Positions 5,378 through 58,496 of a stretch of DNA of 64,000 nucleotides are shown here, piece by piece. How positions within the stretch are numbered: the stretch's first letter is position 1; every line of letters starts with the position of its first letter. This DNA is from a bacterium. Lineage in GTDB: Bacteria > Bacillota > Clostridia > TANB77 > UBA1234. The notes beneath the pieces are model-generated. The model ran no database searches and had not been told where the DNA came from. It saw only the letters and a list, made by a program, of their open reading frames with translations. A program made the position numbers and the translations under genes. The stretch lies in contig CAVHNT010000044.1 in the NCBI GenBank assembly GCA_963637565.1, positions 519-64,518 on the forward strand. Direction: 5' to 3'.

Positions 5378-6391
5378 ATGCTTAATTGTTCTGCTAAAGT
5401 GTATTTTAAAAAATTTGAAGAATATATAAAGAATGGAAAAAAGGACAAATACAGAGCTGAATTACAACAGGCTGAAAAATGTTTGATAGAAGATACTACG
5501 AGTATGATATCAGTTTTGGAAGGAAAAAAAGTGGACAAAAGCTTTATTACAAATATATTGCCTGAGGGAAATGAAAATTGTGAACGTAGATTTATTGAAA
5601 TGGACAATAAGGCTATATTGTACCTTTTTGCGAAGGAAATTCAAAAACTAAATATTGGAAATAATTTCGAGGTTTTAACTCCAGGCTATGGAAGTGTGTA
5701 CATAGGTCCATTTCTTAAAATTATGTGTGGCTATAATTATAGTAACATGATGAAAAGCAAGTATATTGATGAAACAAATGGCACGATATCTCATTCTTTA
5801 GTAGATTTACTATCTAATGATAAAATGTTACATTCTGATGTTGGAATTTTGTTATTAGATGATAATATCGGCACTGGTTCTACAATGGTTGATATTAAAC
5901 AAAAGCTGAAAAAAATAGGAAAAAACAATGTGATGTCTGGCGCTGTTCAATATAATTGGAGAAATTATTATAGAGTTTCAATAGGAGAAAAAACGGATAT
6001 AGAAAGATTTGAAGTAGATGATTATGACTTTTTAACGCCACTTAATTATGCTGGACACAAATTGTATGAACATGCTGTAAATGCTTTGAACTCTAGTGGA
6101 ATGGAATATATTGAATATTTAAATACAAAGGGATACAGAATGAATGATAGGTATTGTGACATTGTAGGAGATTTACTTCGTGGCTTAACATGGGCTGGGA
6201 AAGCTAATTTAGAGCTTATTCCACTAAAGAAAAGTAATAATGAATTATGTGAAGTTCTTCCTAAATACAAACATGGACCATTTAGAGTAAGTAATACAAA
6301 TGCAAGACTAATGATACAATTCATGTATAAATCATTGCAAGACTTACTAGATAAAGATATTGATGATAAAGAGTATAGTAATAGAGAATGA
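5378..6391 (+). CDS. Phosphoribosyltransferase (PRTase type I fold)-domain protein of unknown specificity
   Basis: The PRPP-binding loop DVGILLLDDNIGTGSTMVDIKQKL matches the canonical VLLVDDvltTGxT motif. The 337-aa protein is longer than housekeeping PRTases and has extra N- and C-terminal regions. It is tightly linked to the upstream gene. Confidence 0.55.
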   Translation: MLNCSAKVYFKKFEEYIKNGKKDKYRAELQQAEKCLIEDTTSMISVLEGKKVDKSFITNILPEGNENCERRFIEMDNKAILYLFAKEIQKLNIGNNFEVLTPGYGSVYIGPFLKIMCGYNYSNMMKSKYIDETNGTISHSLVDLLSNDKMLHSDVGILLLDDNIGTGSTMVDIKQKLKKIGKNNVMSGAVQYNWRNYYRVSIGEKTDIERFEVDDYDFLTPLNYAGHKLYEHAVNALNSSGMEYIEYLNTKGYRMNDRYCDIVGDLLRGLTWAGKANLELIPLKKSNNELCEVLPKYKHGPFRVSNTNARLMIQFMYKSLQDLLDKDIDDKEYSNRE

Positions 6392-11551: not shown

Positions 11552-11864
11552 AGTTTTTTCTATGCTAGGTCTTTCTATGAAAGCTGGAAAGCTTGTGTGT
11601 GGAACTGATGTGTGTATTGAGAATATTAAAAATAACAAAGCATTTTTAATAGTAATTGCAGATGACGCATCAGAAAATACAAAAGAAAAATTTGAAAGAT
11701 TGTGCAAACAATATAAAGTAAATCTTATATATTTTGGAGATAAATTTTCTTTAAGTAGAGCGGTCGGCAAAGTTGATAAGGCTGTATATGCTGTTTTAGA
11801 TAAAGGGTTTAGTGAAAAAATATTGCAAATTGAAAAAGAGAATCAAAAGGGGGCTACAAATTAA
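11541..11864 (+). CDS. ylxQ: L7Ae-family ribosomal-protein-like protein (YlxQ)
   Basis: [16 protein letters not shown] ... [12 protein letters not shown] has the L7Ae/L30e fold. The start may be GTG 11541 or ATG 11562. Confidence 0.75.
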
Positions 11865-11865
11865 T

Positions 11866-14800
11866 ATGGGAAGAATGAAAGTACATGAATTAGCTAAAGA
11901 ATTGAATATGACAAGCAAGGAACTAATGGATAAATTAATTAAGTTAAATTATAACGTAAAGAGCCATTTGTCTACGCTTGAAGAAGATGAGGTTGAAAAA
12001 ATAAAAAAACAACTGAGAGAAAGTAATTCTAATTCGACTTCAAATGGTAAAAATGAAAAAGATGTTCCTAAAAAGGAAAAGAAGCCAATAGCTCCTGTTA
12101 TCATAAGAAGAGAGGTTACTAGAATAGAAAGTAGTAATCCACAAATTAAGAGAATGGATAGTAAAGAATCACCTAGAGACGAACTAGGTGTTGTTCAAAG
12201 AAGAACGGATACATCTATGAATATTAAATATAGAACCCCTCCAAGACAAATAGGAAGTATAACCCCTAAAGCAGAAACATCAAAAGCAGAGCCTGTAAAA
12301 AATGAAGTAAAGAAAGTTGAGTCTCTAAAAGTTGAATCTAAAAAAGAAGAAAATAAAGAGGAAATAATATCAAAAGAAAAAGTTATCGAAAATGTAGATA
12401 AAAAGAATATAGTAGTTAAAGAAGAAGTTAAAAAGGAAGAAACAAAGCCGATTGTGAAAGAAGAAGCAAAAGGCGAAAACAAGCCTAAAGAAATACCAGT
12501 ATTAAAGGATGAAGTTGAAGTGAAAAAAGAGCGACCAAAAATGGAATCTAATGAAAAGCAAAATAATAAGCCAAGATTTGAAAACAGAAATGTGGATAAT
12601 CAATATCAAAAGCAAAGACAAGATAATAATAGAAATAATCAAGAAAGATTTCAAAATAATAATCAAAATAGATATCAAAAATTTGATGGAAACAAAGATG
12701 GCAACAGGGATAATAGATTTGATAATAAGAGAAATGATAATAGATTCCAAAAAGATAATAAATTTCAAAATAATAAAGATCAGAGAAATAATAATGATGG
12801 CAACAGGCAAGGCGGCTATAATAAAGACCAACGTAAATTCAATAATAACAACAGACCTGCTCAAACTAGAGAAAATAAGGTAGAGAAAGATATAAAGGGG
12901 ATTATTGCTGCTAATACAGAAGTATCTACTAAAGAAGCAGGAAGAGAAGCCGTTAGAACTGGTTATAAAGATAAAGAAAAAGACAACAGAAAATTTGAGG
13001 AGTCAACCAAAAAGGTAAGTAAATCTAGAAGCTCTAGAGCAGAAAGGGACGACATCAACTATGATAAATTAAAAGATTTACAATCTGAAAGCAATTTCTC
13101 AAATATGTTTAATGATACAGACAGTAAAATGTTTGATTACTATGATTTATCTAGAGGCAAAGGCAAAAAGAAAAATAAGAAAAAGCCAACTGAAAGTAAA
13201 GAACATATTGATCAAAAAATATTTGAACTTACAGATATTGATTTGCCAGAAACTGTTACAGTTAAAGAGCTTGCTGAAAAATTGAAAAAACAAGCATCTG
13301 AAATTATAAAGAAATTAATGGGCTATGGTGTTTTAGCAACACTTAACAACGAATTAGATTTTGATACAGCATATTTAGTAGCTAGTGAATTTGGAGTAAC
13401 TGCTCATAAGAAAGAAACTTTATCTGATGAAGATATTCTATTTGATGATACAGATGATAATGAAGATGAATTAGTTCCAAGACCTCCAATAGTAGTTGTC
13501 ATGGGACATGTAGACCATGGTAAGACTTCACTTCTTGATGCAATCAGATCAACAAATGTAATAGAAAAAGAAGCTGGTGGTATTACACAACATATAGGTG
13601 CTTATAAAGTTGAAATAAATGGAAGAGAGATTACATTTATAGATACTCCTGGACACGAAGCTTTTACAGCTATGCGTGCAAGAGGAGCACAAGTTACAGA
13701 TGTTGCAATTATAGTTGTAGCAGCTGATGATGGTATAATGCCACAAACAATTGAAGCAATAAATCATGCTAAAGCAGCTGGAGTATCAATAATTGTTGCT
13801 ATAAACAAGATTGATAAAGAGGGTGCAAATATAGATAGAGTAAAACAAGAGATAATGGAATATGGTTTGGTACCTGAAGAATGGGGTGGCGACACAATTT
13901 GTGTTCCAATATCAGCAAAACAAAACAAGAACATTGACTCATTATTAGAAATGGTTTTACTTGTTGCTGACATGAAAGAATTGAAAGCAAATCCAAATAA
14001 ACAAGCAAAAGGAACAGTATTGGAAGCAAGACTTGATAAGAATACTGGTATTACAGCATCACTTCTTGTACAAAGAGGAACATTAAATATAGGTGATACA
14101 ATTGTTGTAGGAAGTGTAATAGGAAAAATCAGAGGAATGATAGATGACAAAGGACAAAAAGTTAAAGCTGCTGGTCCATCAACACCAGTTGAAGTTATCG
14201 GTCTTTCTGAAGTGCCAGAAGCTGGTGAAGTATTCTACGAAGTTGAAAATGAAAAAGTTGCAAAACACTTAATAGACAAGAGAAAACGTAAACAAAGAGA
14301 AGAAATGTTAAGAATGGCTGCACCGGTTACATTGGATAATCTATTCAATCAAATTGAAGAAGGTAAATTGAAAGATTTGAACATAATAATAAAAGCAGAC
14401 TTAGCAGGTTCTGTTCAAGCTTTAAAAGCTTCACTTGAAAAGATAAGAAATGAAGAAGCAAGAGTTAGAATTATTCATAGTAATGTTGGTGGAATTACAG
14501 AATCAGATATTACACTTGCAAAAGTAACAAATTCAATAATAATAGGATTTAATGTTAGAGCTGATTCAACAGCAAAATCGATGGCAGAAAAAGAAGGAGT
14601 ACAAATAAACTTATATTCAGTAATTTATAATGCTATTGATGATGTCACCGCAGCACTAAAAGGAATGCTAAAACCAAAATACAAAGAAGTAATTCAAGGT
14701 ACAGCAGAAGTAAGACAAACATTTAAAATTACTAATGTTGGTATGATTGCAGGATGCTATGTATTAGATGGAAAGATAGTAAGAAATTCTGGACTTCGTG

Positions 14801-14976
14801 TAATTAGAGATAATGTTGTAATTCATACAGGAAAGCTTTGTTCATTAAAGAGAATGAAAGATGATGCAAAAGAAGTTGCTGCTGGTTATGAATGTGGTGT
14901 TCAAATTGAGAACTACGAGGACATTAAAGTTGGTGACAAGATTGAATCATTCATACTAGAAGAAATTAAGCAGTAA
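11866..14976 (+). CDS. infB: Translation initiation factor IF-2
   Basis: ATG 11866 ([13 protein letters not shown]) sits behind AAGGGGG. The G-domain motifs are [24 protein letters not shown] and NKIDK. A long low-complexity K/E/N/R/Q-rich N-terminal region is present. Confidence 0.95.
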
Positions 14977-36862: not shown

Positions 36863-37681
36863 TTAAACTTTAACATGCATTATAAATCTCATAATAACCT
36901 TTTCTAGTAGGATAACTGATTTATACATCAATGCTGCGACAATTCCAAGGATTATTACGCTGGTCATAACTAAATCAAGTTTAAAAACTTGCCCTCCATA
37001 TACTATTAAGTATCCAAGACCTGCTTTGGAAACCAGAAACTCGCCCGAAATTACACCAACAAGTGAAAGTCCTATATTAACTTTCATAGCATTTATAAGT
37101 GATGAAATGTTAGAAGGAAAGACAATCTTACTAAAAATTTGCCACTTGTTTGCATTAAAAGTGTTCGCCATTTTAATTAAATTTTTATCTGTTGATGTAA
37201 AACCATTTAACATTTCTAGAATTGTGACTATTATAGAAATAGCAAGTGCCATTACTATTATTGCGGATGTCCCGGCTCCAGCCCAAACAATTATAATAGG
37301 TCCGAGAGCAACTTTAGGTAGACTGTGTAAAATAATTAGAAATGGTTCTGCTACCTTTGAGGCAAAATCTGACCACCAGAGTAAAAAGGCGATTATAGTT
37401 CCTAATAGTGTTCCAAGTAAAAATCCTACTAAAGTTTCATAACATGTTATTCCAACATGCAATAATAAGTTGTTTGATGAAAAATTTAACATTGTGTTCA
37501 ATATACGCGAGGGTTGGCTAGTTATAAATGGATTTATAACACCAATGTTTCCTAGTATTTCCCATAGAAGAATGAAGGTAACAAGTATAAAAAGTTGAGT
37601 AAATAAAATTTTATATTTTCTTTTTTTCTTATTTTTTAAAAATGATTTTCTTTCATCAGAAATTGTATTATCCATTGGCAT
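36863..37681 (-). CDS. ABC transporter permease (SsuC/TauC-like, BPD_transp_1)
   Basis: It has six TM helices and the EAA-like loop motif region. Confidence 0.75.
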   Translation of the reverse strand: MPMDNTISDERKSFLKNKKKRKYKILFTQLFILVTFILLWEILGNIGVINPFITSQPSRILNTMLNFSSNNLLLHVGITCYETLVGFLLGTLLGTIIAFLLWWSDFASKVAEPFLIILHSLPKVALGPIIIVWAGAGTSAIIVMALAISIIVTILEMLNGFTSTDKNLIKMANTFNANKWQIFSKIVFPSNISSLINAMKVNIGLSLVGVISGEFLVSKAGLGYLIVYGGQVFKLDLVMTSVIILGIVAALMYKSVILLEKVIMRFIMHVKV

Positions 37682-38436
37682 TTAACTCCTTCCAAATGCA
37701 ATCAAAATACTTACTGAAAGCAGGATCTTCTCTGCAATTTAAAGGAGTTCTGTTTGAAATGTCAAAATTAATATCATAAACATTCTTTATTACAGCTGGT
37801 CTTTTAGAAAGTACAATGATTTTATCAGACATGCTTATACTTTCTGGAATATCATGCGTTACCATTATTGCGGTTTTATGTTCGTTTTTGATTATGCTAT
37901 AAACATCATTTGTGACATCTAAACGAGTTTGGTAATCAAGTGCAGAAAAGGCTTCATCTAGTAGAAGGTAGGAGGGCTTGGTAGCTAATGTTCTTATAAG
38001 TGCAACTCTTTGCTTCATTCCACCTGAAAGTTGAGATGGATATTTGTCAATAAACTCCCCGAAGTCCATATGTGTTTAGAAGGTTTAATGCATATTTCTT
38101 ACTTTCTTCGTTTAACATATTTTTAATTTCAAGACCTATAAGTACGTTTTTATACACTGTTCTCCAATCTAATAAATAATCTTTTTGAAGCATATATCCA
38201 ATGTTTTCTATTTTTCCTGTAATATCTTTTCCATCCAAAATCACATTGCCTGATGACGGCATTTCTAATCCTGCTATTATAGAAAGCAAAGTCGATTTAC
38301 CGCATCCACTTGGACCAACTATGCTAATAAAATCACCTTGTTTAAAAGAATAAGAAAAATCTTTGATTGCTAGAACTTCGCCATTAATGTCTTGATAGAC
38401 TTTTGAAATCTTATTCAAGACTAATCCATTTTTCAT
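37668..38436 (-). pseudogene. ABC transporter ATP-binding protein split by a +1 frameshift in a G4/C4 homopolymer (two ORFs 38047-38436 and 37668-38069)
   Basis: The upstream half carries Walker A GPSGCGKST and ends ...LLNTYGLRGVY*. The downstream half begins MDFGEFIDKYPSQLSGGMKQR and has Walker B LLLDEAFSALD. Removing one G from CGGGGAG (plus strand CTCCCCG, about 38054-38058) restores a continuous ...LLNTYGLREFIDKYPSQLSGG.... Confidence 0.7.
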
Positions 38437-39914: not shown

Positions 39915-40439
39915 ATGAAAAACAAAGAAATAAGAAAAATACTTGTTGTTATAATGTCTTTGGCAATGATTATAGCATTTAATTCGACTGTGCTTGCAAC
40001 AATTGGATCTGTTTCAGCCAATAGTTCAATAGATACAGTTGATATGCCATTACCACCGGTAGATGATGATAACAATAAAAATGATGAGCTAGTACCTGAT
40101 GCTTCAAATAAAAAAGAGAATGATATGACAGAAGCTGGCGAAACAGTTGTTGGGAGAATTAGTAGAAAAGAAAAAAGAATAGCAGAATTGACAGATAAAT
40201 ATAATGATGAGGTATATGGTAAAGTTGCATACTATTTAGAAGTTGCACAAAAATATAGTTTACCAATATGTTTTATAGGAATAGCTATGGGTTCTTTTAA
40301 TTTTTTGATAGTGGGCAATAAGAAACTTGACAAAAAAGAACAAGGTTATGGCTGGATAGTAGGATTTGTAATAGGGTTAGTAGTTTTTAATGTAATGCCT
40401 TTATTATTTGCATTGTTTGTTGCTGGCAGAGGTGCTTAA
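39915..40439 (+). CDS. Hypothetical exported/membrane protein
   Basis: RBS AAGGAGG is present. It has a signal peptide and two C-terminal TM helices. No motif recognised. Confidence 0.45.
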   Translation: MKNKEIRKILVVIMSLAMIIAFNSTVLATIGSVSANSSIDTVDMPLPPVDDDNNKNDELVPDASNKKENDMTEAGETVVGRISRKEKRIAELTDKYNDEVYGKVAYYLEVAQKYSLPICFIGIAMGSFNFLIVGNKKLDKKEQGYGWIVGFVIGLVVFNVMPLLFALFVAGRGA

Positions 40440-40531
40440 GAATAATGCAAAAGGACTTTTTGTCCAAATGATATTAATTTGTAATTTAGTTGTAGATTTA
40501 TACTAAAGCATAAATAGGAAGGTGAATGATA

Positions 40532-43438
40532 ATGAAAGTACTTTTCGCTATGGGAAATGACCAAGTGTCAACAAATGTTGCCAATAGGTATTATGAAAAA
40601 TATGGAGAGGTTTTAGAATATAAGAATGTGTTCTTTTTTAAAGCTCTAATTGAAGAAGTAAAAAGAGATAAAACATATGACAGGATTGTAATAAGTGAGG
40701 AATTAGAACAATTTAGAGCAAAGGATTTAGAACAAGTAGATAGGTATTTATTTAATAGCATTGACAAGATAACAGATGAGATTCAGGACTCAGATATTAT
40801 ATTTATATGTTCAGATAGAAGAGAAAAAGGAGACGCTTTTGTAAGTAAGTTGTTTAGTATAGGTATTTACAACTTATTGCTTGGAGACGACAGAAATGTA
40901 AATCCTCTTTGTGAAATAATAAAAAAGCCTAAGAATAAAAGGGAAGCAAAACAGTATTTAAATATAGATGCATCATCAATTGTTAATACTTCGATGACAA
41001 CAGATGATGAGGTTGATGAATTCCAGATGAGAAGTATATTAAGCTTTTATGAAGGAATAAGAAATCAACCTGAAAAGTATTTGGAAACTTTTGACAGAAT
41101 AGCAGAGCAGTATAGCAGAAAACAATTAAAAATCATAGTTTCAATGCTACCAAAACAAATCACTGATGTGGTGTTACAGGCAGATAGATATAAGTATTTA
41201 GCATCTTTACCGCAACAAGATGCACCTACTCAAGTTGCCCAACCAACTCCTGTAAAAGAGCAAAAATCGAAGAGTGGAGGCTTTTTGGGTGTCTTTAGAA
41301 GGCATAAAGTAGAGCAACTTCAACCAAAAGTTGAAAAACAAGTTCCACCAGTGCAATCTATACAACAAGGTGGACAAGTTGATTTGAGTAGCAACGAGGA
41401 TGAGCAAAAGCAAGCAGAATTAATGGCTCGAGCTCGTGAAGAAGCTAAAGCGAGAGAAAAAGCCGAAGTCGAAGCCAAAAAGCAAGCAGAGCTTGCAGCT
41501 AAAGCAAAAGCTGAGGTAGAAGCAAGACAACAAGCAGAACTTGCAGCTAAAGCAAAAGCCGAAGTCGAAGCAAGGCAACAAGCAGAACTTGCAGCTAAAG
41601 CAAAAGCTGAGGTAGAAACAAGACAGCAAGCAGAACTTGCAGCCAAAGCAAAAGCTGAAGCAGAGGCAAGACAGCAAGCAGAGCTTGCAGCTAAAGCAAA
41701 AGCTGAAGCAGAGGCAAGACAGCAAGCAGAGCTTGCAGCTAAAGCAAAAGCTGAAGCAGAGGCAAGACAGCAAGCAGAGCTTGCAGCTAAAGCAAAAGCT
41801 GAAGCAGAGGCAAGACAGCAAGCAGAGCTTGCAGCTAAAGCAAAAGCTGAAGCAGAGGCAAGACAGCAAGCAGAGCTTGCAGCTAAAGCAAAAGCTGAAG
41901 CAGAGGCAAGACAGCAAGCAGAACTTGCAGCTAAAGCAAAAGCTGAAGCAGAGGCAAGACAGCAAGCAGAACTTGCAGCTAAAGCAAAAGCTGAAGCAGA
42001 GGCAAGACATAAAGCTGAATTAGATAAAATAGCTGCTGAAAGAAGAGAAAAAGAAAAACTTGCAGAATTAGCAAAAATAGAAGAACAAGAAAAGATTAAT
42101 GATATAGAAAAAGCCAAAAAAGATGCTGAACTTGCTGCAAAAGAACGTTTAGATCAAATGGCTAAAAATGAAAATGTAATTATAGAAGTAAAACCTAACT
42201 TGAATGCACCAGATAGACCAGTAGAACCTATTAAAAATGTACAACCAGTTTTACAAAAAACTTCTGATGCCATAAAAGCAAATTCTGAAAACAAGCAGCA
42301 AGAAACGACTACAACTAAAAAAGAAGAAGTTGTTAAAAATATTCAAGAAAACAAAAATGCAAATTTAGCTGTTGATGAAAGTCGTCAACAAAGTGTTAAA
42401 CCAAATTCAGTTGCTGTTTCAGAAGATGAGAAGAGAATGAAGGCAGAACAAGAAAAATTAGCAATGGAACAAAAGAGAATTAAAGAGGAACAGGCTAAGT
42501 TAGAGGAAGAAAAGAAAAGGTTAAGAGAAGAGCAAGAAAAACTTATAAATGCTCAAAATCAATTAAAAGCTAATGCTACAAATGAGTATAGTGCGCCACA
42601 ATATACTAATACTCCAGCAAATACACAAATTGCTCCTCTTGATTATAAAAAGATGGTTGTTTTTGTTGGTGCAAACAAAGTTGGTACAACATTTATTACA
42701 AATGCAATAGCTCACTCAATGGCAAATGCGAAGATAAATACATCAATATTGGATATGACTAGAGATAGAAGCATGTTTTATTTATACAATCAAAATGATA
42801 AAACATTAAGAAAAAGAGCAGAAGAGTGTATGCAAAAAGTAATGGATGGAGACGATTGCTATTTAGAAACAACAAATAGATATTTAAAAGTATACACCAC
42901 AATTCCAGGAACACTGACAGACCCACGAAGGGGTTATAAGCATAAAGCAATTATAGAAACAGTTAAATCAAACTGCAACTTAACGATTGTTGATGCTGAT
43001 TTTACAACACCAATTGATTACTTTGATCAAGCAAATGAAGTATATTTAGTCCAAGATTTAGATTTATTAAAAATGCCTGATACTACTCTATTTTTAAGAG
43101 AGTTAAAAAATAGAGGAATGGACATGAAAAAAATAAGAATAATAATTAATAAGTATGTAAAAACATCACTATCACAAAAACAAATTGTTCAGACATTATC
43201 ATCTTATAGTGATCCTAGTATGTCGTTTTATGATACGGTATTACCAGGAAAAGTCATGTCGTATATAGTACCTTACAACCTAAACAATTATGCTAAATAT
43301 GTTGATTCTGTTTGTAGTGGAGTGCTAAGTTACAAAGGATATTCAGCCGATTTTATGCAAGCAATAGACGAAATTGGCTCGGCAATATTTCCAAAAAATA
43401 ATCCTACTGGAAAAACTTCAAGGAGATTTTTTGGATAA
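40532..43438 (+). CDS. Large repeat-containing protein: N-terminal receiver-like domain, 16-aa tandem coiled-coil repeats, C-terminal degenerate ParA/MinD (CpaE/TadZ-like) domain
   Basis: The N-terminus is MKVLFAMGNDQ.... There are about 12 near-identical AELAAKAKAEAEARQQ units. The C-terminus has KKMVVFVGANKVGTTFITNAIAHS (a deviant P-loop) ... NLTIVDADFTTP (Walker-B-like) ... IRIIINKY. Confidence 0.5.
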   Translation: MKVLFAMGNDQVSTNVANRYYEKYGEVLEYKNVFFFKALIEEVKRDKTYDRIVISEELEQFRAKDLEQVDRYLFNSIDKITDEIQDSDIIFICSDRREKGDAFVSKLFSIGIYNLLLGDDRNVNPLCEIIKKPKNKREAKQYLNIDASSIVNTSMTTDDEVDEFQMRSILSFYEGIRNQPEKYLETFDRIAEQYSRKQLKIIVSMLPKQITDVVLQADRYKYLASLPQQDAPTQVAQPTPVKEQKSKSGGFLGVFRRHKVEQLQPKVEKQVPPVQSIQQGGQVDLSSNEDEQKQAELMARAREEAKAREKAEVEAKKQAELAAKAKAEVEARQQAELAAKAKAEVEARQQAELAAKAKAEVETRQQAELAAKAKAEAEARQQAELAAKAKAEAEARQQAELAAKAKAEAEARQQAELAAKAKAEAEARQQAELAAKAKAEAEARQQAELAAKAKAEAEARQQAELAAKAKAEAEARQQAELAAKAKAEAEARHKAELDKIAAERREKEKLAELAKIEEQEKINDIEKAKKDAELAAKERLDQMAKNENVIIEVKPNLNAPDRPVEPIKNVQPVLQKTSDAIKANSENKQQETTTTKKEEVVKNIQENKNANLAVDESRQQSVKPNSVAVSEDEKRMKAEQEKLAMEQKRIKEEQAKLEEEKKRLREEQEKLINAQNQLKANATNEYSAPQYTNTPANTQIAPLDYKKMVVFVGANKVGTTFITNAIAHSMANAKINTSILDMTRDRSMFYLYNQNDKTLRKRAEECMQKVMDGDDCYLETTNRYLKVYTTIPGTLTDPRRGYKHKAIIETVKSNCNLTIVDADFTTPIDYFDQANEVYLVQDLDLLKMPDTTLFLRELKNRGMDMKKIRIIINKYVKTSLSQKQIVQTLSSYSDPSMSFYDTVLPGKVMSYIVPYNLNNYAKYVDSVCSGVLSYKGYSADFMQAIDEIGSAIFPKNNPTGKTSRRFFG
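41435..42010 (+). repeat. 48-bp tandem repeat array (about 12 units) inside CDS 40532-43438
   Basis: The unit is GCAGAGCTTGCAGCTAAAGCAAAAGCTGAAGCAGAGGCAAGACAGCAA. Five consecutive units (41675-41914) are 100% identical, and the outer units carry 1-4 substitutions. Confidence 0.9.
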
Positions 43439-43450
43439 AGGAGGGATAAA

Positions 43451-43711
43451 ATGGATTCAGAGAATACAATATTTTTTAAGGTGGAAAAAGAAAAGAAAGC
43501 TAATTCGAAGCAAATATTAAGACAAGTATATGAAGCATTAGTTGAAAAGGGCTATGATCCAATAAATCAGATTGTTGGATATATTCTTTCTGGAGATCCA
43601 ACATATATAACTAGCCATAAAGATTCAAGAAGTTTGATCCGTCAATTAGAAAGAGATGAACTTCTAGAAGAACTAGTAAAAGAATATATTGGAGTTAACG
43701 AAGAAAAATGA
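43451..43711 (+). CDS. ireB: UPF0297 protein IreB (YrzL)
   Basis: [53 protein letters not shown] matches the IreB/YrzL family. Confidence 0.85.
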
Positions 43712-44118
43712 GAATAATTGGTTTAGACTATGGAGAAGCAAGAACTGGTGTTGCGATATCTGACGCATTAGGTATAACTGCACAGGGACTTGAATCTATT
43801 GAGCATGGCGAAAGTGAAAAAAAACTGTTGAACAGACTTGAAGAAATCATAAAAGAACATAATGTAGAAAAAATCGTTATAGGATATCCACTAAATATGA
43901 ATGCAACTAAAGGCCCAAGAGTTCAAAAAACAGACAAGTTTATTGAGAAACTTGTAAATAGATTTCACTTAGAAGTGATTAAAATAGATGAACGATTGAC
44001 AACGGTTTCTGCACATAGAACAATGCAAGAGCTAGCTATAGGTAAAGACAAAAAAAGAAAGATTGTAGATACTATATCTGCTCAATACATATTGCAGATG
44101 TATCTAGATAGAAATTAA
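43708..44118 (+). CDS. ruvX: Putative pre-16S rRNA nuclease / Holliday junction resolvase-like YqgF (RuvX)
   Basis: [19 protein letters not shown]...[13 protein letters not shown] are the YqgF motifs. Confidence 0.9.
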
Positions 44119-44139
44119 AAGAAATGAAAGGAGAAAAAA

Positions 44140-44457
44140 ATGGACGATAACATGAACAATAATGATGAATTTGAAGGAATGGAAGATTTTGATGAATTAG
44201 ACAATAAAATCATATTAAATGATGAAGATGGAAATGAAGTTGAATTTGAATTCTTAGATGTAGTAGAAGTTGACGGAACAGAATATGTTGTATTATTACC
44301 AGTAGAAGAAGCTGATAAAGGCGAAGTAGTAATATTCAGAATCGAAGGCGAAGGTGAAGATGAAAGTTACGTTAGCCTAGAAGATGAAGAAGAAGCAGAA
44401 AAAGTATTCGAAGCATTTAAAGAAAAGACAAAAGACGAATTTGACTTTGTAGACTAA
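44140..44457 (+). CDS. DUF1292 family acidic protein (YrzB)
   Basis: It is a small, very acidic protein in the conserved position after ruvX. Confidence 0.7.
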   Translation: MDDNMNNNDEFEGMEDFDELDNKIILNDEDGNEVEFEFLDVVEVDGTEYVVLLPVEEADKGEVVIFRIEGEGEDESYVSLEDEEEAEKVFEAFKEKTKDEFDFVD

Positions 44458-44477
44458 TTTAGAGTAGTTAAAATTGA

Positions 44478-44506
44478 CTCGTATGGATTAAAACCATGCG
44501 AGTTTT
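44478..44506 (+). terminator. Intrinsic terminator after DUF1292 gene
   Basis: The hairpin CTCGTATGG-ATTAAAA-CCATGCGAG is followed by TTTTTCT. Confidence 0.5.
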
Positions 44507-47977: not shown

Positions 47978-48775
47978 ATGCAAGAAAAAATTAAAGTTGT
48001 AATAGCAGATGACAACGTAGAATTTGCAGAAATAGTTAAAAATTTTCTGAATCAAAAAGAGGATATTGAAGTAATAGATATAGCAAAGGATGGAGAAGAA
48101 GCTGTTAAGATATTAAAAGAAAAAGAACCAGATGTAGCACTGCTTGATGTTATAATGCCACAATTAGATGGAATAGGCGTTCTTGAAAAGTTAAATGCAA
48201 TGCCTAAAAAGTTAAAAACTAATTTCATAATGTTATCAGCAATTGGTCAAGATATTATAACACAAAAGACAGTTGTGCTTGGTGCACAGTACTATATGCT
48301 AAAACCTTTTGATTTGGAATTACTTGCAAAAAGGCTAAGAGAAATAAAACATGGTATGGTAGAAGCTCCTAAATATGTTGGAATACCACTAAAAAAATCT
48401 ACATACATAACAGATGGAAAAGATACCCTTGAAACATCAATAACAAATATAATACATGAAGTTGGCGTACCTGCTCACATAAAAGGTTATCAATACATAA
48501 GAGAAGCAATTACATTAGCTGTAAATGATATGGATGTAATTAATTCTATCACGAAACAATTGTATCCGACACTTGCAAAGAAATTCAAAACAACTCCATC
48601 AAGAGTAGAAAGGGCAATACGTCACGCAATAGAAGTTGCATGGACTCGTGGTAGTATGGATGCAAATAATGAAATGTTCGGAAACACAATATCAGCCACC
48701 AAAGGCAAGCCAACGAATTCAGAATTCATAGCAATGATAGCAGATAAGCTAAGACTTGAAATGAAATCAGCATAA
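47978..48775 (+). CDS. spo0A: Stage 0 sporulation protein A (master sporulation response regulator)
   Basis: A receiver domain (VVIADDN...DVIMPQLDG) is followed by the Spo0A-specific C-terminus [15 protein letters not shown]...[33 protein letters not shown]. Confidence 0.95.
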
Positions 48776-57087: not shown

Positions 57088-57918
57088 ATGGAAACAACAA
57101 TAGACAGAACTAGTTATAGACGAAGTAATATTAAGTGCGAAGTTAAGGAAAGAAAAAAGACTAAATTAGTGAAGATATTTTACAATGAAATAATTGCAGC
57201 AATGTCAATATTAGTTGCAGTACTTATTATAAAACTTTTTGATTTAAAAACAGCGTCTGATTGGATTAAGCAGAACATTGAAAATGGTATATCATACGAA
57301 ACTTTAGCTTTAAATGTAAAGGAAAGAGCAACAAAAATAGTGAATAATTTTTTAAAAGTATATGAATCAGGAGATGTTTCTAAAAACAAATTTGATGAAT
57401 CGAATTTGGAAGTGAAAGTAAATGAAAGCAATTTAATAAATTTGAGTGGCGAAAGTACTGTGTTTGAATATGAAAGTGCAGTTGAGGGAATTAATCAACT
57501 CTCAGAAGATGCAAAGTATATAAAAGAAAATTATAAATTGTTAATGCCTTTGAAAGGTACAGTTACTTCGAAGTTTGGTTGTAGAGTTGATAATAATCCA
57601 ATAGTAAGCAATTATCATACAGGTCTGGACATTGCTGCTAATATCGGAACAACTATAAGTTCTGTTCTAGATGGAACAGTGACTGAAGCTGGAAATATAA
57701 GTGGATATGGAAAGTGTGTGATGATAAAGAAGGATGAAATATTAGTTGTATATGCTCATTGCTCAAAGATTAATGTAAAAAAAGGTCAGAAAATCGTGCA
57801 AGGGGATAAAATAGGAGAAGTAGGGATGACCGGAAATGCTACTGGTCCACACCTTCATTTGGAAATCAGATATGAGGGTAGGTATGTGAATCCCGAAGAT
57901 ATTTTTGAATGTCAATAA
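57088..57918 (+). CDS. M23 family metallopeptidase, SpoIVFA-position membrane protein
   Basis: An N-terminal TM segment is followed by the M23 motifs HTGLDIAA and GPHLHLEI. It is translationally coupled to the downstream S2P gene, as in spoIVFA-spoIVFB. Confidence 0.65.
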   Translation: METTIDRTSYRRSNIKCEVKERKKTKLVKIFYNEIIAAMSILVAVLIIKLFDLKTASDWIKQNIENGISYETLALNVKERATKIVNNFLKVYESGDVSKNKFDESNLEVKVNESNLINLSGESTVFEYESAVEGINQLSEDAKYIKENYKLLMPLKGTVTSKFGCRVDNNPIVSNYHTGLDIAANIGTTISSVLDGTVTEAGNISGYGKCVMIKKDEILVVYAHCSKINVKKGQKIVQGDKIGEVGMTGNATGPHLHLEIRYEGRYVNPEDIFECQ

Positions 57919-58496
57919 AAATTCATATATATTTAATATTGATGGCTGCGTATATGTTTGCTATTGGTAAGATAGAAATGTTTGCATATTATTATTTATT
58001 TGTGTTAATGCACGAACTATCGCATATATTAGTGGCTTTAATTTTAGTGGTTGATGTAAAAGAGATAGAATTATTACCAATAGGAATCAATGCAAAATAT
58101 GAAAATAAAATTTCGTTAATTAGGGAACTAATTATAAGTCTTGCTGGACCAATTGCAAGTATTCTTTTTGCAATCGCTTTTGAAAATAAAGTATTTGTTT
58201 TTATGAATATATGTATTGCAGTGTTTAATTTAATTCCAATATATCCTTTAGATGGAGGAAGAATACTACAAAGTACTTTAAAGATAATATTTGGAGAATA
58301 CACTGGAAAAAAACTAAGTTATACAATAACAAAATTTTTCTTGATAATTTTGTCATTAGTTTCATTATTTTTGGCGGCCTATGCTCAAAATTACTATTTT
58401 ATAATACTAACAATATATGTGCTTTATATAGCAAAAGAAGAGGTGAAAAAAGAGCACTTTTATGGAATAATTAACTATTTACAAATTGACGAATAA
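57909..58496 (+). CDS. spoIVFB: Site-2 protease (M50B), pro-sigma-K processing enzyme SpoIVFB-like
   Basis: The HExxH motif is HELSHILVA. NLIPIYPLDGGRIL is the LDG motif. It is a short-form S2P (195 aa) that overlaps the upstream gene. Confidence 0.7.
   Translation: MSIKIHIYLILMAAYMFAIGKIEMFAYYYLFVLMHELSHILVALILVVDVKEIELLPIGINAKYENKISLIRELIISLAGPIASILFAIAFENKVFVFMNICIAVFNLIPIYPLDGGRILQSTLKIIFGEYTGKKLSYTITKFFLIILSLVSLFLAAYAQNYYFIILTIYVLYIAKEEVKKEHFYGIINYLQIDE

Follow-up and report, generated by a model that had tools for sequence, protein, structure and literature searches.

How does a 48-nt tandem repeat come to occupy the middle of a cytoplasmic bacterial protein, and is the number of its units tuned by selection or free to drift? 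This question is raised by a gene encoding a protein of 970 amino acids (open reading frame (ORF) 40526–43438, + strand), which is located on contig CAVHNT010000044.1 (assembly GCA_963637565.1) of a bacterium of the class Clostridia. The whole stretch of this contig that was analyzed (64,000 nt) is referred to as the window; the exact 970-aa protein is on record in NCBI. The explanation favored here, to which we assign a probability of about 0.6, is that the repeat is a coding minisatellite encoding a helical tether within an interdomain linker that tolerates change, the length of which drifts under weak selection and is not tuned.

Tandem Repeats Finder (TRF) identified a single strong array (41481–42009; period 48, 11.0 copies, 95% matches, 0 indels, score 918); every other repeat within the window scored 95 or less. 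Relative to the reading frame of the 970-aa protein, the array consists of eleven units of 48 nt (QAELAAKAKAEAEARQ; 41483–42010, + strand), each of which is translated into 16 amino acids, QAELAAKAKAE[A/V]E[A/T]R[Q/H]. As a helix, the eleven units would extend over approximately 26 nm. They are preceded by a degenerate twelfth unit, the first in order (REEAKAREKAEVEAKK; 41435–41482, + strand), which differs from the majority unit in 18 of 48 nt. The units starting at positions 41675, 41723, 41771, 41819, and 41867 are identical across 48/48 nt (41675–41914, 0 mismatches each), and the units flanking this core are 1 to 7 nt away from the core unit. The longest self-match at a shift of 48 nt covers 230 nt. 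Five identical tandem 48-mers cannot have arisen by chance, and the five-unit core is the youngest part of the array. The initial annotation of the window had described about 12 units with five consecutive identical ones, and both this count and the positions given for it proved exact. With its head-to-tail units of high nucleotide identity, the length of which is a multiple of three, and its position in frame, the array is a coding tandem repeat. Twenty codons depart from the majority unit, 15 of them synonymously. The array is in frame with 0 indels; the initial annotation had proposed that a change in unit number would proceed without a frameshift.

Two further features of the array were considered and rejected. 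ORFs of 265, 196, and 128 aa on the opposite strand or in the +1 frame within the array were dismissed as by-products of the repeat. Every unit contains a 6-bp hairpin (GCAAGC-AGA-GCTTGC), but a hairpin-driven repeat mechanism was discarded because three units fold no better than shuffled sequences (z −1.1).

The mean identity of the units is 93.5% within the array and 82.5% to the array of the sister lineage, the flanking sequences of which are 91–93% identical. These values indicate that the lineage of the window recently amplified one unit type, which agrees with the recent homogenization and expansion suggested in the initial annotation. The amplification would have led from roughly 6 to 12 units, and slipped-strand mispairing or unequal exchange among near-identical units would be the likely mechanism. 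The same process would homogenize arrays within lineages and let them diverge between lineages (concerted evolution). In E. coli, replication slippage and unequal recombination both act on tandem repeats of such size. Bacterial in-frame variable number tandem repeat proteins such as the streptococcal alpha C/Rib and M proteins and the mycoplasma Lmp proteins share with the array near-identical units with a length that is a multiple of three, differences in copy number between strains, and concerted evolution. However, these are surface proteins under immune selection, whereas the array described here lies between two domains of a cytoplasmic protein. It can be regarded as a coding minisatellite of an ordinary kind that occupies an unusual site.

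In nearly all long-linker species of the family, the corresponding site of the linker holds tandem repeats (2–12 copies), mostly with a period of 48 nt and in some cases of 45, 51, 63, 66, 81, 87, or 90 nt. The clade of approximately 580-aa proteins contains no repeat array in the linker. Among the family arrays compared, the array of the window has the highest score and unit identity; up to 12 units were assembled in other species (L026, L027). The loci of the closest relatives, L011 and L001, share the 91–93% identical flanks mentioned above (L068, 100% identical to L011, represents the same assembly) and contain six units each. These units are 6–13 nt apart from one another and therefore resolvable by short reads. 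A third fragment of this sister lineage (P0021) displays a different unit order and ends inside the array. In a second species with flanks of 98–99.8% identity, 8 units were counted in L012, at least 11 in L003, and at least 10 in L004; L003 and L004 contain variant units (…ARK, …AGARE) not seen in L012. Homologs with different unit counts, for which the initial annotation had proposed to search, therefore exist, both across species (2–12 units) and among close relatives (12 versus 6 units at 92–93% nucleotide identity, 8 versus at least 11 at 98%), although short-read assemblies can mis-size perfect repeats.

Such differences between close relatives could also point to an adaptive contingency locus, in which frequent slippage varies the spacer length and thereby tunes the interdomain distance, so that selection would maintain a length-variable "molecular ruler". 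The perfect identity over 240 nt is a substrate of high-frequency slippage, the period of 16 aa is kept across the subclade, and several lineages independently hold highly homogenized arrays that break assemblies. On the other hand, the protein is cytoplasmic, and surface or antigenic variation, the usual driver of length-variable repeats, is therefore absent. L011 and L001, which were sampled independently from the sister lineage, have the same number of six units, and neither a phenotype nor a partner distance to be measured is connected with the array. Moreover, the linkers of the orthologs range from 57 to 865 aa and consist of unrelated sequences (AT-hooks, proline repeats, other periods). 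The contingency explanation is therefore considered unlikely. The tolerance of such different lengths and linker chemistries among orthologs argues for a weakly constrained length, and the array comprises only 193 of the approximately 465 linker residues. The "tunable molecular ruler" envisaged in the initial annotation is thus unsupported. The copy number would probably be under weak selection, that is, subject to drift in a tolerant tether. Slippage as the mechanism, a tether function, and weak selection on length are what we infer from these comparisons.

Several points weigh against a drifting helical tether. Perfect repeats may be collapsed or broken in short-read assemblies, and the counts of the relatives are partly lower bounds. 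The perfect stretch of 230–240 nt exceeds a typical short read, and the assembled copy number may differ from the true one. A second sample of the window's lineage was found neither in a 90% cluster look-up nor in a look-up of contigs with the exact protein, and a metagenome scan with a conserved flank returned only L068. With 40% charged residues and 40% Ala, the array has less charge than classical ER/K single helices, which leaves room for an Ala-based bundle or self-association. The helix was read from composition and charge pattern; the structure models cover the two end domains. In addition, the period of 16 aa persists across lineages with C-terminal domains that are only about 57–60% identical, which could mean a specific role of the helix beyond spacing.

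The first of these points leads to the notion of an assembly artifact behind the copy number in the window, with five identical units mis-resolved and a true array that is shorter or longer. The length of the perfect stretch would be in line with this, as would the breaks or gaps that nearly all other assemblies of the gene show in the array: of nine metagenome scaffolds, eight contain a run of N within the 16-aa array, and the ninth (L005) is interrupted in a proline-rich repeat. Furthermore, the window derives from a contig of 76.7 kb, the sequencing technology of which is unknown. However, the array is in frame without indels, the diverged units at its edges pass gradually into identical ones, as in natural minisatellites, and arrays of up to 12 units were assembled elsewhere (L026, L027). 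An artifact, which appears very improbable, would alter the count and not the existence of the array.

The type of helix encoded by the units was deduced from the 193 residues of the array. They comprise 40% Ala, 40% charged, and 7.8% large hydrophobic residues. Among the i/i+4 pairs, 59 are of opposite and 2 of like charge. The array has a net charge of zero and no basic face, which makes a DNA binding of the kind described for the CAF-1 KER helix unlikely. A hydrophobicity spectrum of the array displayed no peak at 3.5 residues. There is one Leu per 16 residues, and successive Leu residues rotate by 160° per unit, so that they spiral around the helix. This combination of dense opposite i/i+4 pairs without a hydrophobic seam is that of ER/K-type single α-helices (SAHs). 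The array fits an SAH or a rod similar to domain II of TolA, with predicted salt bridges at i/i+4, and not a heptad coiled coil; its helicity and monomeric state are what we infer from the sequence. The 16-codon units would thus encode a helix rich in Ala, Glu, Lys, Arg, and Gln, which would serve as a semirigid tether between the two terminal domains. The estimate of about 2.4 nm per unit made in the initial annotation is arithmetically right for an α-helix.

The initial annotation had instead assigned a coiled coil, and a canonical two- or three-stranded coiled coil could dimerize the protein, with the unit number setting the length of a dimeric stalk. It is established that domains of the ParA/MinD type work as dimers, "alacoils" are a possible packing of Ala-rich helices, and weak compositional matches of the protein in Pfam and NCBIfam include fibrinogen-binding and TolA repeat proteins. 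Nevertheless, the missing periodicity, the scarcity of large hydrophobic residues, and the charge pattern speak against this assignment. A repeat of 16 residues fits neither heptads nor hendecads, and its Leu residues are 160° apart. Within the linker, heptad spacing is confined to a separate, non-repeated helix (residues 632–680). A coiled coil formed by the array is therefore judged improbable, and the coiled coil of the initial annotation was not retained.

The single-helix tether has counterparts in other proteins. SAH domains bridge domains and serve as spacers or springs (PMC4183817, PMC4571873, PMC10335832), and the length of TolA domain II varies from 110 to 335 residues depending on the species (PMC12204202). 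Domain II of TolA and the ER/K helices of myosin, INCENP, and CAF-1 (KER) are likewise long helices rich in Ala, Glu, and Lys, which join two modules and display ladders of i/i+4 salt bridges. Compared to classical SAHs, the array is richer in Ala and poorer in charge. TolA contains a membrane anchor and domain III, whereas the 970-aa protein has neither, begins with a receiver-like fold, is cytoplasmic, and stems from a lineage of the Gram-positive type. Its match to the TolA model of NCBIfam (TIGR02794) reached 37.2 bits and remained below the cutoff of 59.45.

The two domains joined by the linker were not recognized by family models. Neither Pfam nor NCBIfam contains a model that matches the 970-aa protein at threshold; searches of Pfam, NCBIfam, and PDB sequences with the full protein and with the single domains yielded only compositional or sub-threshold hits (TolA, Fibrinogen_BP, and a faint CbiA). 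A PDB sequence search with each terminal domain returned no solved structure. In contrast, structure prediction from the homolog alignments A1 and A2 resulted in two confident models, one for each terminal domain. Both folds are predicted and the array lies in the linker, which bears out its placement between two globular domains in the initial annotation. The protein possesses neither a signal peptide nor a transmembrane segment; it is cytoplasmic, and its N-terminus is strand 1 of the receiver-like fold.

The N-terminal domain (residues 1–229; 40526–41212, + strand) is modeled as a receiver (CheY-like) fold up to about residue 145, followed by five short bundled helices (residues 165–225). 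Its phospho-acceptor pocket lacks conservation (KVLFAMGND follows strand 1, and DRIVISEEL is located at strand 3). By inspection, without structural superposition, only the Ala of A-M-G-N-D after strand 1 is invariant, and an invariant Glu instead of Asp follows strand 3 (RIVIS). The domain is thus predicted to have the fold of a receiver; the acidic pocket and the phospho-acceptor Asp are missing.

The C-terminal domain (residues 696–970; 42611–43435, + strand) was modeled by AlphaFold2 with a predicted local distance difference test (pLDDT) score of 83.8 and a predicted template modeling (pTM) score of 0.84. Foldseek matched the model to PDB structures of ParA, Soj, MinD, FleN, BcsQ, and FlhG with E-values of 3e-9 to 1e-6, template modeling scores of 0.6–0.7, and a probability of 1.0. 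None of the Pfam models CbiA, ParA, and AAA_31 was matched at its gathering score; CbiA was detected in only 5 of 20 members, with E-values of 0.067 or worse. The P-loop is atypical (GANKVGTT, 42668–42691), and a logo of 141 sequences revealed G-x-x-K-x-G-T-[ST] as the family motif. A Thr takes the place of the canonical GK[ST] lysine, and a lysine is located three residues upstream of this Thr. Invariant across the family are the Asp residues equivalent to those of switch I and Walker B, which lie in ILDMTRD and IVDADFTTP in the 970-aa protein, and an N-K motif (here IINKY). The model therefore suggests a ParA/MinD (SIMIBI) fold, whereas the deviant Walker A motif KGGxxGK[ST] with its signature and catalytic lysines is absent. 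Fold, switch I and Walker B Asp, and N-K motif are shared with MinD, ParA, FlhG, and BcsQ; both lysines of these proteins, that of the signature and that of the canonical P-loop, are lacking. A further difference is the fusion to a receiver-like domain via a giant linker. The protein ends with ...RRFFG (43421–43435), which we take to resemble the basic-hydrophobic amphipathic membrane tails of the MinD type.

At the level of predicted folds, the order of an atypical receiver and a ParA-like domain is that of TadZ/CpaE. However, TadZ/CpaE proteins (e.g., E. rectale TadZ, 3fkq; N-domains of CpaE, 4myr and 4n0p) have a short interdomain linker in contrast to the approximately 465 residues found here, their deviant Walker A is KGGxxGK[ST] in contrast to GxxKxGT[ST], and no sequence similarity to the 970-aa protein was detectable. 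They are encoded in tad/cpa pilus loci together with CpaF/TadA and TadB/C, whereas the gene studied here has no tad/cpa neighbors. No Tad pilus genes were found in the window, in which no ORF of at least 380 aa matched a secretion ATPase family. By analogy with TadZ/CpaE, MinD, and FlhG, a role in localization or scaffolding would be expected for the 970-aa protein.

From its N-terminal end, the linker is composed of a Q/P-rich segment, the array, an E/K-rich helix, an N/K/V-rich segment, and a conserved charged helix. The Q/P-rich low-complexity segment (residues 230–295) contains the motif GGFLGVFRRHK (41276–41308, + strand), which is kept in the subclade of the window and occurs in 12 of the 85 full-length family members. 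A motif comparison showed that it resembles the C-terminal tail of the same protein; the tail ...RRFFG is likewise kept in the subclade, the internal motif also recalls the amphipathic membrane-targeting tails of the MinD type, and both may bind the membrane. The E/K-rich helical continuation (residues 496–547; 42011–42166, + strand) is not repeated and is conserved in the close relatives L011, L012, and L013. Within the N/K/V-rich low-complexity segment (residues 548–631) lies the conserved short motif VIIEVKPNLNAPDRP (42176–42220, + strand), which was also found in L011, L012, L013, L015, L016, and L005; a related P-V-[VI]-I-P-S is present in the AT-hook clade. The final charged helix (residues 632–680; 42419–42565, + strand) is likewise not repeated and is conserved across the subclade. 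With L or I every seven residues and a spectrum peak at 7.0–7.1, it is a possible dimerization helix.

Relatives of the protein were initially visible only in pieces. Word-indexed searches yielded about 20 clusters for each domain, all of which were fragments because the repeat breaks assemblies. An exhaustive profile search returned 352 cluster representatives (50% identity) at E ≤0.001; the 150 matches listed range from 113 to 1434 aa and include many fragments. A scan with one genome per species revealed 57 carriers, all of them metagenome-assembled genomes of uncultured gut Clostridia (including "Clostridium sp. CAG:465" and "CAG:1219"), and the full-length orthologs in these species representatives comprise 565–1012 aa. 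In a set of 85 full-length proteins, both domains are constant, and the linker varies from 57 to 865 aa, a 15-fold range. Matches of 250–320 aa were rejected as stand-alone CpaE-like C-domain proteins; they are fragments starting within the linker. No paralog of either domain was found within the window. The combination of a receiver-like and a ParA-like domain without a Pfam or NCBIfam model represents a previously unrecognized protein family.

The chemistry of the linker differs among the members. About 60 of the 85 full-length proteins carry AT-hooks in the linker (RGRPRK; KRRGRPRKNP), mostly exactly two, and such members (e.g., P0028–P0034) often bear ILPGFE-type repeats as well. These AT-hooks suggest a contact to DNA for most members. 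They are absent from the clade of the window, in which an A/E/K helical array has replaced them. In L005 (GCA_964400015.1), an assembly gap at 5778–5877 is located in a second, proline-rich linker repeat (PNVNPVAPKVN...), indicating that the linkers of the family gather several kinds of tandem repeats.

The gene for the 970-aa protein is surrounded by genes for an ATP-binding cassette (ABC) transporter, a carboxypeptidase of the penicillin-binding protein 5 type, a small membrane protein, ireB, ruvX, and a DUF1292 protein. Directly upstream, a gene on the same strand (39915–40439, +) encodes a protein of 174 aa with a signal peptide or transmembrane segment followed by two C-terminal transmembrane helices. 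No Pfam or NCBIfam family was found for this protein. The arrangement of the two genes is syntenic in the subclade and at some distant loci, and the 174-aa membrane protein may be a partner of the 970-aa protein. Downstream, ireB, ruvX, and the DUF1292 gene (43451–44504, + strand; Pfam) follow with gaps of 12 nt or overlaps. A terminator scan detected the first terminator-like hairpin at 44476–44504 and none between the 970-aa gene and the end of the DUF1292 gene. From the tight spacing and the position of this hairpin, the four genes probably form one transcription unit. The ireB-ruvX pair is located directly downstream of the family gene in 55 of 57 loci. In the short-linker clade (L033–L067; L042, 7910–8968), a gene encoding a transmembrane GGDEF-domain protein sits between the family gene and ireB. 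The inserted gene matches PF00990 with 51.8 bits and has YTGSR where the GGDEF motif is expected; the insertion hints at a link to cyclic di-GMP signaling.

A few further features of the window are not connected with the array. An ABC-transporter ATPase (37668–38436, − strand) is divided between two ORFs (129 and 133 aa) that overlap and correspond to one half of PF00005 each, with a change of frame at a CGGGG run near 38047–38069. The same split was called in L001, L003, and L004 and is therefore regarded as a conserved frameshift, pointing to an old pseudogene or, possibly, to programmed frameshifting. The translation initiation factor IF-2 (11812–14976, + strand) is unusually long (1054 aa) and contains tandem repeats of 24 and 18 nt in its N-terminal extension (12634–12776). 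Neither tRNA genes nor Rfam families at gathering score were detected in the 64 kb, despite the presence of the housekeeping genes infB and gltX, an RNase J gene, and spo0A. The genes spo0A (57088–58496, + strand) and an M23 peptidase/M50 protease pair resembling spoIVFA/spoIVFB (47978–48775, + strand) suggest that the organism is probably a spore-former.

Since the array breaks the gene in nearly every short-read assembly, public collections hold almost only N- and C-terminal fragments, and the family was overlooked. This family of receiver-like and ParA-like proteins hidden by short-read assembly is a by-product of more interest than the repeat itself. In a broader and speculative reading, which we consider unlikely as a whole, it would be an undescribed family of cell-organizing proteins, in which a fast-evolving tether separates a TadZ-like receiver from a ParA-like, nucleotide-binding module whose P-loop lysine has been relocated. 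The tether would comprise AT-hooks in most members and a salt-bridged single helix in the clade of the window, and the length set by the repeats would fix the reach of the ParA-like module from a membrane, polar, or nucleoid anchor. In the order TANB77, a Tad-like pilus cluster is reported to be conserved, in which the TadZ-like (231 aa) and CpaE-like (280 aa) proteins are separate (PMC11680825). In size, these match the two domains described here, and the family might be a fused paralog of both. If the hosts belong to TANB77, the family would be part of a clade of current clinical interest (PMC11680825). As the linkers of a single orthologous protein span 57 to 865 aa, the family provides a natural tether-length series, which could be used to test the effect of linker length on a module of the ParA/MinD type.

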